From NCBI RefSeq assembly GCF_009931435.1, contig NZ_CP043414.1: DNA of 64,000 nucleotides. One strand, 5' to 3'. Under the pieces are notes generated by a model. It ran no database searches, had not been told where the DNA came from, and was given only the letters and a program-made list of their open reading frames with translations. This document shows, piece by piece, positions 19,816 to 23,020 of this stretch (positions are counted from its first letter, which is position 1; each line of letters starts with the position of its first letter). Both the position numbers and the translations under genes were made by a program. The stretch is from Escherichia coli (GTDB lineage Bacteria; Pseudomonadota; Gammaproteobacteria; Enterobacterales; Enterobacteriaceae).

Positions 19816-20988
19816 ATGATTGATTATTCCGCAGCCGGTTTTACCCTGCTGCAGGGAGCGCATTTGTATGCGCCGGAAGATCGGGGAATTTGCGATGTCC
19901 TCGTCGCTAACGGCAAAATTATCGCAGTTGCCAGCAATATCCCTTCTGACATCGTACCTGACTGCATGGTCGTCGATCTCCGCGGGCAGATCCTCTGCCC
20001 TGGTTTTATTGATCAACACGTCCATTTGATTGGCGGTGGCGGAGAAGCTGGCCCCACTACGCGTACGCCGGAAGTGGCGTTAAGTCGTCTGACAGAAGCG
20101 GGCGTCACGTCAGTGGTTGGACTGCTGGGCACCGACTCTGTCTCTCGCCACCCGGAATCCCTGCTCGCCAAGACCCGTGCGCTCAATGAGGAAGGCATCA
20201 GCGCCTGGATGCTGACCGGCGCTTATCATGTACCTTCCCGCACCATTACAGGTTCCGTGGAAAAAGACGTGGCAATTATCGATCGCGTGATTGGCGTGAA
20301 ATGCGCTATCTCTGATCACCGCTCTGCCGCACCGGACGTTTATCACCTGGCCAATATGGCGGCGGAATCCCGCGTTGGCGGTTTGCTCGGCGGTAAGCCT
20401 GGCGTCACTGTGTTCCACATGGGCGACAGCAAAAAGGCATTGCAGCCTATCTATGACCTGCTGGAAAACTGCGATGTTCCCATCAATAAGTTGCTGCCGA
20501 CCCACGTTAACCGCAACGTACCGTTGTTTGAACAGGCGCTGGAGTTTGCGCGCAAAGGCGGTACCATCGACATCACCAGCAGCATTGACGAACCAGTCGC
20601 CCCTGCCGAAGGTATTGCCCGCGCCGTTCAGGCCGGTATTCCGCTGGCACGCGTCACCCTCAGCTCTGACGGCAACGGTAGCCAGCCGTTCTTCGATGAC
20701 GAAGGGAATTTAACCCATATCGGTGTTGCAGGTTTTGAAACGTTGCTGGAAACCGTGCAGGTTCTGGTCAAAGACTATGATTTCAGTATCAGCGATGCCC
20801 TGCGCCCGCTCACCAGTAGCGTAGCCGGTTTCCTTAACCTGAGCGGGAAAGGCGAAATTCTGCCAGGCAATGACGCAGACTTACTGGTCATGACGCCAGA
20901 ACTGCGCATTGAACAGGTATACGCCCGCGGCAAACTGATGGTTAAAGACGGCAAAGCCTGCGTGAAAGGAACGTTTGAAACGGCATAA
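19816..20988 (+). CDS. iadA: isoaspartyl dipeptidase (amidohydrolase superfamily)
   Basis: 390-aa ORF with metal-dependent hydrolase motifs (HVHLIGGGGE); RBS AAGGAG upstream. Confidence 0.9.
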   Translation: MIDYSAAGFTLLQGAHLYAPEDRGICDVLVANGKIIAVASNIPSDIVPDCMVVDLRGQILCPGFIDQHVHLIGGGGEAGPTTRTPEVALSRLTEAGVTSVVGLLGTDSVSRHPESLLAKTRALNEEGISAWMLTGAYHVPSRTITGSVEKDVAIIDRVIGVKCAISDHRSAAPDVYHLANMAAESRVGGLLGGKPGVTVFHMGDSKKALQPIYDLLENCDVPINKLLPTHVNRNVPLFEQALEFARKGGTIDITSSIDEPVAPAEGIARAVQAGIPLARVTLSSDGNGSQPFFDDEGNLTHIGVAGFETLLETVQVLVKDYDFSISDALRPLTSSVAGFLNLSGKGEILPGNDADLLVMTPELRIEQVYARGKLMVKDGKACVKGTFETA

Positions 20989-20994
20989 ACGGTT

Positions 20995-21039
20995 GTCAGC
21001 CGCCCGAATGGACGTAGAATGCCCGCAAGGGCGGCTGAC
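20995..21039. other. long-loop palindrome between iadA and hypT (possible terminator or protein-binding structure)
   Basis: 11-bp perfect arms GTCAGCCGCCC (20995-21005) / GGGCGGCTGAC (21029-21039) with 23-nt loop. Confidence 0.35.
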
Positions 21040-21052
21040 AGAGTAAAACGTA

Positions 21053-21964
21053 ATGGATGACTGTGGTGCGGTTTTGCATAATATTGAAACAAAATGGCTT
21101 TATGATTTTCTGACCCTGGAAAAATGCCGCAACTTTTCCCAGGCGGCAGTCAGTCGCAACGTCTCACAACCCGCATTTAGCCGTCGCATCCGCGCGCTGG
21201 AACAGGCAATTGGCGTTGAATTGTTTAACCGCCAGGTGACGCCTCTGCAACTCTCGGAACAAGGGAAAATCTTCCATTCGCAGATCCGCCATCTGCTGCA
21301 ACAGTTAGAGAGCAACCTTGCAGAACTGCGTGGCGGCAGCGATTACGCGCAACGTAAAATCAAGGTAGCCGCTGCACACTCTCTTTCTCTCGGTCTTTTA
21401 CCGTCAATTATCAGCCAGATGCCGCCGCTCTTTACCTGGGCGATTGAAGCCATTGATGTTGATGAAGCGGTCGATAAACTGCGTGAAGGGCAAAGCGACT
21501 GTATTTTTTCCTTTCATGACGAAGATTTGCTGGAAGCGCCGTTTGACCACATTCGCTTATTTGAATCTCAATTGTTCCCCGTCTGCGCCAGTGACGAACA
21601 CGGAGAAGCACTTTTTAACCTCGCACAGCCACACTTTCCGTTACTGAATTACAGCCGCAACTCCTACATGGGGCGATTGATTAACCGTACCCTGACGCGC
21701 CACAGTGAGTTAAGTTTCAGCACCTTTTTTGTCTCGTCGATGAGCGAGCTTTTAAAGCAGGTTGCCCTCGACGGCTGTGGGATTGCCTGGCTGCCGGAGT
21801 ACGCCATCCAACAAGAAATTCGCAGCGGGAAGCTTATCGTTCTGAATCGGGACGAACTGGTGATCCCGATTCAGGCCTATGCATACCGGATGAACACCCG
21901 TATGAATCCCGTGGCCGAACGCTTCTGGCGCGAACTGCGCGAGCTGGAGATTGTGCTTAGCTGA
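21053..21964 (+). CDS. hypT: LysR-family transcriptional regulator (hypochlorite-responsive HypT/YjiE)
   Basis: 303-aa ORF with N-terminal LysR HTH ([23 protein letters not shown]). Confidence 0.85.
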
Positions 21965-22349
21965 CATTCTCCAGCGTCGCACTACACCAACCGCCACTAT
22001 CCCAGACCAGATCAAACGTTAGCGGTTCATCGTCGTGGTGCAGCATTATCTCAAGGCTGATCGCCAGCGTGTGGCTGTACGCTTCTTTCAAATTGACCTG
22101 CAACGCCGCAATCCGAGGCTCATGAAATAACAGTGCAGAACGTAGTTGACGGCAATACCAGCTCTGGAGATGTTTGTCGCTCTGGTTATGCACTTGCCAC
22201 TCAGGCATACCTGAAACAAGTAATGAAGGTAATGCCGAATGAGGAGAATTAAAAAGAGTGAGGAGATCGCTGCATACCGATTTACGCAGTGATAACGTTT
22301 TATTGCCTGAAATTTCAGGTGAAACAGCCTGAAGTGATTGGCGCATCAT
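21957..22349 (-). CDS. iraD: anti-adaptor protein IraD (130 aa)
   Basis: ORF convergent with hypT, 3' ends overlapping by 8 nt; start taken at second ATG cluster (MMRQSL). Confidence 0.75.
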
Positions 22350-23020
22350 TTTGCGCACTCCTGACGTTTAGCAACATATGTGGCTTGCCCTGAATACCGG
22401 GCACCACTGTATTGATGCTCATTTTCCATAGCCATTCCCTTTTGTTCATTACATCCATGTCAGTCTGAGACAGGCCTGAATCCTGTCAGCAAAGTATAAA
22501 ACCTTACTTGCCTATGAATATCTACTGACTTTTCAGGAAAAAAGTCATGATTTGATAAAAATCATCAAACTCAAAAAAAAACTGCTAGTATATTCTGAAT
22601 ATTCCGAATAGTTACGTAGATGAAAATACTTGTCACCGCCGCTACTTAATCCCGGCGGGACATTATTTATTTTCGTATAATCAACCATGTATTACTTGAA
22701 ACAATTAGTTTGTAAATAATATAAATTGATAACATATCAAATACATCAAAAACACCATTCACAGGCATTATTAATATAGACATCAATATAACAACATCAA
22801 ATTCCAATTAGTAATAAGATATGCTTTTTAATTGCATGCAAATAATTTTAAATGAGCGTTTTTTGATACTTTAGAGTGTTTCCCACCCTTTCATATGACC
22901 GTGTAGAGTTGATATCACTACAACAGAAACATGCATGTCATTTGTTTACTTCTCTTTTTACTACAGAAAAATTTATCTATTTTTCTAAGCATCAGTGAAA
23001 TACTCATAAAGGTAATTAAT

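Follow-up and report, generated by a model that had tools for sequence, protein, structure and literature searches.

The convergent genes hypT and iraD of Escherichia coli share 8 nt at their 3' ends. The overlap is a real, fixed, and annotated feature of the locus, and it is likely a passive structural result of how the junction is constructed rather than a regulatory device. Passive capture of stop codons, within unconstrained protein tails and at an indel hotspot, would yield the overlap. The window, which is the whole stretch of DNA that was analysed, is 64,000 nt long, and all positions refer to it unless an extracted locus is named.

Geometry of the junction

The two coding sequences and the bases that they share are as follows.

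21053..21964, plus strand: hypT (yjiE) coding sequence, 303 aa, with a TGA stop at 21962-21964 (ORF list and RefSeq annotation)
21957..22349, minus strand: iraD (yjiD) coding sequence, 130 aa, with a TAA stop (RefSeq annotation)
21957..21964, both strands: shared stretch TTAGCTGA, 8 nt (direct sequence reading)

Read directly, the plus strand across the junction (21940-21979) is cgagctggagattgtgcttagctgacattctccagcgtcg. The hypT gene ends on the plus strand with the codons GAG ATT GTG CTT AGC TGA, and iraD ends on the minus strand with GAG AAT GTC AGC TAA, the complement of its stop being the TTA at 21957-21959. In the hypT frame, TTAGCTGA comprises the second and third bases of codon 302 (Leu), all of codon 303 (Ser), and the TGA stop. 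Read in the iraD frame, the same bases comprise the second and third bases of codon 129 (Val), all of codon 130 (Ser), and the TAA stop. hypT and iraD form a convergent overlapping pair on opposite strands, with 8 nt common to their 3' ends.

The gene names, strands, and coordinates given for hypT and iraD in the preliminary description agree with the sequence, the ORF list, and RefSeq. That description also held that the two stop codons overlap by 8 nt. The figure is correct for the coding sequences with their stops included; the stop codons themselves are separated by 2 nt and have no base in common. Its further statement that the transcripts must overlap stands as a geometric consequence, because a translatable mRNA must contain its own stop; its suggestion that they could interfere with each other is unsupported. 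A scan of 20800-23000 on both strands returned 0 terminator-like sites, so that neither strand has an intrinsic terminator in this interval.

K-12 MG1655 and R32_14_1F both have this 8-nt overlap in their RefSeq/PGAP annotation (extracted-locus 4058-4065 in both). Among seven aligned E. coli alleles, TTAGCTGA is unaltered in six, and the seventh has a change that removes the hypT stop. The overlap is an ordinary one, already annotated, and lies at the known variable site of GimA.

The two genes and their neighbors

Both hypT and iraD are real protein-coding genes, as indicated by equivalog matches, RefSeq, and the IraD crystal structure 6OD1. HypT is a LysR-type, hypochlorite-responsive regulator. 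It matches the NCBIfam equivalog NF007488 at 695 bits (cut-off 301) over residues 1-303 of 303, and the Pfam families HTH_1 (14-72) and LysR_substrate (99-297). IraD is an anti-adaptor that blocks RssB-mediated degradation of RpoS. It matches the equivalog NF010726 at 287 bits (cut-off 198) over residues 1-130 of 130 and Pfam GPW_gp25 at 20-107, and its residues 17-130 align to chain B of PDB 6OD1. In the annotation, iraD begins with the ATG at 22349 and encodes 130 aa; the mechanical ORF list instead has a GTG at 22358.

Upstream of iraD and of hypT, the following features were located.

22346..22429, minus strand: idlP (ORF27), the iraD leader peptide, with a translation of 27 residues (RefSeq)
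22767..22800, minus strand: two overlapping sigma-70-like matches, ~420-450 nt upstream of the iraD start (consensus scan)
20993..21020, plus strand: candidate hypT promoter, sigma-70-like TTGTCA-16-TAGAAT (10/12), in the iadA-hypT spacer (consensus scan)

The idlP stop overlaps the iraD start by 4 nt, and idlP acts in CsrA-mediated translational coupling (PMC5574718). By an approximate comparison with Park et al. 2017, the matches at 22767..22800 lie near the published position of the iraD promoter P1. In that study, the iraD leader fusion spans -138 to +20 and the P1 and P2 start sites are 280 nt apart (PMC5574718). By the consensus scan, sigma-70-like sites are no more numerous in the region than expected from shuffled sequence.

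Within the iadA-hypT spacer (20989-21052), at ~20994-21042, lies a perfect inverted repeat of 12 bp, TGTCAGCCGCCC...GGGCGGCTGACA. Its fold of -31 kcal/mol is among the four most stable 61-nt folds of the window. The sigma-70-like consensus match overlaps the left arm of this repeat, and the repeat is retained in Escherichia lineages that lack hypT.

Frequency of the junction and the GimA patterns

Of 5,426 complete E. coli genomes, 4,880 (about 90%) match a 71-nt junction query contiguously, with at least 80% of it covered. In ~247 other complete genomes, the hypT side alone matches, and the match ends at window position 21968. The E. coli reference genome has 663 overlapping pairs, of which 75 are convergent (Huvet & Stumpf 2014, PMC4161906), and the hypT-iraD overlap is one of many, neither rare nor a statistical anomaly. 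The overlap itself matters little: it is one of ~75 in E. coli, it is annotated, and overlapping 3' ends are the norm.

GimA is located between yjiD and yjiE, and Homeier et al. 2010 (PMC2878320) describe three patterns there: GimA+, a 342-bp remnant, and GimA-minus. The window, like K-12, has the GimA-minus pattern, in which iraD and hypT are contiguous and no GimA or pptE-remnant sequence lies between them. This architecture has zero intergenic DNA, and the iraD stop is the complement of hypT codons 302-303 (cTT Agc). In UTI89 (GimA+), ~20 kb separates hypT from iraD, including ptsP/pptE, dhaKL, gcl, ibeA, and nhaC. In KE51 (remnant), a truncated PEP-binding-protein gene lies between the two, as in the 342-bp pptE remnant pattern. 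The genes do not overlap in these GimA+ and remnant strains, and IraD is 127 aa long and ends ...WHRTMPQ*. GimA-minus IraD is 130 aa long and ends ...SATLENVS*. NCBIfam has distinct equivalog models for the 130-aa and 127-aa forms.

Between GimA-minus and GimA-type backgrounds, the iraD alleles share ~82% amino acid identity over 121 residues. The N-terminal half of GimA-type IraD is closer to E. albertii and other Escherichia lineages than to K-12. At the level of sequence comparison, so deep a divergence is suggestive of introgression at the locus or of a polymorphism that is old.

The version of the locus in the window is itself uncommon. Over 20900-22700, 5,395 complete E. coli genomes match; only 13 of them reach 99% identity to the window, and most, K-12 included, are ~95-96% identical. 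The nearest strain at the locus is the goat isolate R32_14_1F (99.8%). A further match is NZ_ABFU01000118.1, filed as Bacillus coahuilensis m4-4. The whole 605-nt contig is E. coli hypT/iraD junction DNA, in which HypT is 100% identical over residues 275-303 and IraD is 95% identical, and is evidently, by its sequence, contamination in that assembly.

Overlap size and protein tails in related genomes

Across Escherichia, the hypT/iraD junction is a hotspot for indels, and the length of the overlap differs from allele to allele. The added value of the locus is modest and evolutionary, since it offers a natural series in which tail-to-tail overlaps form and re-form through stop-codon capture in unconstrained protein tails at the GimA indel hotspot.

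In E. coli FDAARGOS_1059 (NZ_CP066032.1; extracted-locus 601-736), the hypT stop TGA is changed to AGA, and RefSeq annotates a HypT of 335 aa whose coding sequence overlaps iraD by 104 nt. The hypT gene of E. whittamii ends ...IEPG* (CCT GGC TGA), without the TTA that is used as the iraD stop in E. coli. Because this hypT allele has no TTA, the iraD ORF extends to a TAG inside hypT, which produces a 21-nt overlap (locus 3392-3412) and an IraD tail of ...WHSSIPGVSARFNL*. Escherichia sp. MOD1-EC7003 has a K-12-type junction with only a fragment of iraD.

In other genomes, hypT is absent and iraD converges directly on iadA. These are E. albertii, GCA_000208585.2, and the Logan assembly SRR26665273. 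The latter two retain the last ~22 nt of hypT (GCAGGAGATTGTATTTAGCTGA), which serve as the final codons and stop of iraD. E. albertii retains an internal hypT fragment that resembles the ...IAWLP... coding stretch. In another divergent Escherichia genome, GimA genes adjoin a 127-aa iraD. As read from these sequences, iraD in the GimA-minus architecture always ends in hypT-derived DNA, with the first in-frame stop setting the length of the overlap.

Outside Escherichia, HypT of Salmonella and Citrobacter has 302 aa and a C-terminus unlike that of E. coli, and the iraD probe matched none of these loci. A tight convergent neighbor of hypT is seen here too: in S. enterica subsp. diarizonae, where ORFs were listed, a racemase-like convergent gene ends 4 nt from hypT.

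The bases of the overlap encode protein ends. HypT residues 298-303 are outside the LysR domain, as the Pfam LysR_substrate match ends at 297. The crystal structure of IraD with RssB used a construct of residues 17-130, of which only 18-124 were modelled and 125-130 were not (PMC6546054). The overlap codons (HypT 302-303 and IraD 129-130) are therefore in tails without evident constraint or structural role, which is consistent with their variability between lineages. The nearest relatives of IraD outside Escherichia are Citrobacter TssE proteins in T6SS clusters, and these end at ...GGWR; the last ~8 residues of IraD are therefore an add-on. In the sequences compared, the C-terminal tail of IraD depends on the adjoining DNA.

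This arrangement has a practical consequence. Deletion or tagging at the 3' end of hypT or iraD, as in knock-outs and C-terminal fusions, also changes the last codons or stop of the partner, together with the stem-loop that spans both stops.

A stem-loop enclosing both stop codons

The junction lies inside an inverted repeat, which is newly described here and was absent from the preliminary description.

21939..21980, both strands: inverted repeat/stem-loop of ~14 bp, with arms CGAGCTGGAGA (21940-21950) and TCTCCAGCgTCG (21968-21979)

Both stop codons are inside the loop on either transcript. The RNA folds at -25.1 kcal/mol on the plus strand (z -4.0) and -26.8 kcal/mol on the minus strand (z -3.8), placing it among the top 0.8% and 0.4%, respectively, of all 61-nt windows in the 64 kb. 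The window has about 25 other sites whose folds reach -27.1 kcal/mol or below and are at least as stable. Rfam covariance models gave 0 matches at E <= 1 in 20900-23000.

With its G+C-rich stem of ~14 bp and a fold of -25 to -27 kcal/mol, the structure has the stem-loop of a bidirectional intrinsic terminator. There is no T-run or U-tract after it on either strand; the plus strand continues GTCGCACTACACC and the minus strand CGCAGTTCGCGCC. The absence of a U-tract and the empty terminator scan rule out a canonical bidirectional intrinsic terminator.

The exact 44-nt allele is present in ~2,591 of the ~4,880 junction-bearing genomes, about half. The common O157 (TCTCAAGC, C to A) and p10B (TCTCGAGC, C to G) alleles break the central G-C pair. 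Their change is synonymous in iraD and non-coding for hypT, and the paired site, where a change would be synonymous in hypT, has no compensating substitution. The resulting stem-loops are weaker, at about -19 to -21 kcal/mol. A covariation test of the hairpin is impossible, because the left arm is invariant in the sampled E. coli alleles and the sole stem variation is uncompensated. A count of pairs across junction types would be meaningless, as MAFFT put the GimA-type sequences out of register. No equivalent structure was found in GimA+ or remnant strains, E. whittamii, Salmonella, or Citrobacter. The hairpin was also considered as a conserved 3' structure of hypT itself and rejected: UTI89 folds at only -9.2 kcal/mol (z +1.1), and the other genomes just named have no equivalent.

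These data bear on the possibility that the stem-loop is a selected, shared, bidirectional 3'-end element, either a terminator or a stabilizer, and that the overlap is kept because both genes need the structure. Its z of about -4 on both strands and its place in the top ~1% of windows, exactly on the junction, favor such an element. The right arm of E. coli (iraD strand), CTGGAGAAT, is also a better complement of the left arm than CCGGAAAAT of MOD1-EC7003 or GTGGGAAAA of GCA_000208585. Stability above ~99% of windows, combined with this greater complementarity, could reflect selection for function. U-less stem-loops moreover mark Rho-dependent ends (PMC6061677), and an excess of C over G follows on the hypT strand. 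On the other side, a U-tract is missing on both strands, the iraD strand has no such skew, the ~25 other sites fold equally well or better, only about half of the junction-bearing genomes have the exact allele, and the stem is disrupted in the O157 and p10B alleles with no compensating change. The argument that the hairpin is under selection is weak, and a selected element is an unlikely explanation of the overlap.

Transcript ends and interference

Under the preferred explanation, that of passive stop-codon capture, the stem-loop would have a simpler role. Because neither gene has an intrinsic terminator, each transcript would run antisense into the partner gene and would probably be ended by Rho. 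Both mRNAs would then probably be trimmed back to the stem-loop, which would act as a 3'-exonuclease barrier and set the steady-state 3' ends. These ends are predicted near 21980 for hypT and near 21939 for iraD, making the mRNAs complementary over ~40 nt. The 3'-end positions, the dependence on Rho, and the low interference discussed below are all predicted from the arrangement of the locus.

One stretch of base composition is relevant to termination of hypT.

21965..22024, plus strand: C-rich, G-poor stretch of 60 nt directly after the hypT stop, with 24 C but only 9 G, on the strand opposite the end of iraD (base counts)

By analogy with published Rho-dependent ends, Rho could load on hypT transcripts in this candidate region. 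Past the iraD stop, the corresponding 60 nt hold 20 C and 18 G, with no C>G skew. In E. coli, stable stem-loops without a U-tract and with C>G downstream are the signature of Rho-dependent 3' ends (Dar & Sorek 2018, PMC6061677). A stable stem-loop lacking a U-tract is what is found at the end of hypT and iraD.

Complementary 3' ends at hypT/iraD are ordinary. In K-12, 276 of 370 convergent operons have them, with a mean overlap of 286 nt (Conway et al. 2014, PMC4161252), and overlapping ends are the norm. Interference between the two genes, whether by polymerase collision or by RNA duplex, is probably small, because both genes are weakly expressed. The transcript of the wild-type iraD'-'lacZ fusion was undetectable by Northern blot in a csrA+ strain, and work on iraD expression relied on 5' fusions only (PMC5574718). 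The supplements of a Term-seq study (Adams 2021, PMC7815308) and of the p19 dsRNA-capture study have no iraD, hypT, or yjiE entry. Both genes are poorly expressed in standard growth, and absence from these tables is for that reason weak evidence. The p19 study obtained 37.9-fold less dsRNA from convergent 3' overlaps than from divergent 5' overlaps.

A regulatory alternative, which follows the suggestion of the preliminary description, is antisense coupling of the excludon type, in which read-through of the partner's 3' end represses a gene by polymerase collision or by RNase III cleavage of the duplex. It predicts reciprocal expression of HypT and IraD under different stresses. Such control is conceivable, as both proteins are stress regulators (HypT for hypochlorite; IraD for DNA damage, ppGpp, and RpoS), the mRNAs are necessarily complementary, and no terminator lies between the genes. 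The iraD promoters are inducible (PMC5574718), and antisense transcription is able to tune expression in E. coli (PMC4731013). The frequency of collision, however, scales with promoter firing, and iraD mRNA is too scarce for Northern detection in the wild type. No dsRNA cluster is listed at the locus in the p19 supplements, and convergent 3' overlaps are generally poor in dsRNA. A literature search found no paper that treats the hypT/iraD pair or its overlap, and no published evidence of coupling. The comparative data weigh further against it. In ~10% of E. coli genomes (GimA+ or remnant), hypT and iraD are separated by 0.4-20 kb, hypT is missing in E. albertii and two other lineages, and the length of the overlap depends on the allele; the overlap is dispensable in many lineages. 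Such free variation (an overlap of 0, 8, 21, or 104 nt, or no hypT at all) speaks against a conserved role in regulation, and antisense coupling is quite unlikely.

Combining the structure with coupling, the stem-loop would be a shared bidirectional 3'-end module of GimA-minus E. coli that ties together the stability or termination of the hypT and iraD mRNAs. Were this very improbable reading true, read-through from iraD induced by ppGpp or DNA damage would lower HypT output, or the reverse, and the hypochlorite response would be linked to the stabilization of RpoS. The O157 and p10B alleles with their stem mismatch, as well as GimA+ strains, would then differ in coupling.

Origin of the junction

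The overlap could also be a scar of GimA excision or insertion, with the inverted repeat or short flanking repeats acting as the recombination site of the 20-kb GimA. The locus is the published GimA site (PMC2878320), and UTI89 and the window share sequence as far as the border of the right arm, 4 nt past the end of hypT (...GCTGACATT), before they diverge; at the far end of GimA, CATT is again found, just ahead of the stop of iraD. A scar is nonetheless extremely improbable: the left and right GimA junctions resemble each other no more than expected by chance (772 of 2,000 shuffles do as well), GimA has no mobility genes, tRNA, or recognized repeats (PMC2878320), both junction types occur in several Escherichia lineages so that either state may be the ancestral one, and the deep divergence of the iraD alleles (82% over 121 aa) indicates an old polymorphism, not a recent precise excision. 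Direct repeats of ~15 bp flanking GimA, with the K-12 junction as a single copy, were considered separately and are unsupported, as the same 772 of 2,000 shuffles score as well.

Comparison with known systems

Short convergent overlaps of bacteria resemble hypT/iraD in that genes on opposite strands share a few 3' bases, stops included, through movement of a stop codon. There is no essential difference, and the present case adds that related genomes keep the alternatives (overlaps of 0, 8, 21, and 104 nt, or a deleted partner).

For GimA, the same flanking genes and the same three patterns as in PMC2878320 were recovered here. The available part of Homeier et al. 2010 makes no mention of the coding-sequence overlap, the switch between 130-aa and 127-aa IraD tails, or the stem-loop.

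The 3' stem-loops of Dar & Sorek 2018 (PMC6061677) are alike in being stable, U-less, and at a gene end, with C>G following as it does after hypT. The hypT/iraD stem-loop differs in that it is made up of coding sequence of both genes, has both stops in its loop, and could, judging by its position, serve both strands. The convergent operons of Conway et al. 2014 (PMC4161252) and the excludons are alike in having complementary 3' ends without an efficient terminator. Excludons are set apart from hypT/iraD by their definition, which requires long antisense overlaps and demonstrated reciprocal expression.

IraD is related to TssE and to phage T4 gp25. It matches Pfam GPW_gp25 and, below the curated cut-off, the TssE model TIGR03357, and is 49% identical to Citrobacter TssE encoded inside T6SS clusters. 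In contrast to TssE, IraD is an orphan without T6SS neighbors, and its tail beyond ...GGWR is extra and overlaps hypT. These matches suggest that IraD is a TssE that was repurposed as an orphan gene and gained a tail at its C-terminus.

Among the Citrobacter sequences collected, metagenome contigs (extracted-locus 3001-3372) carry a genuine tssE within a complete T6SS (VipA/VipB/Hcp/TssF/TssG/ClpV).
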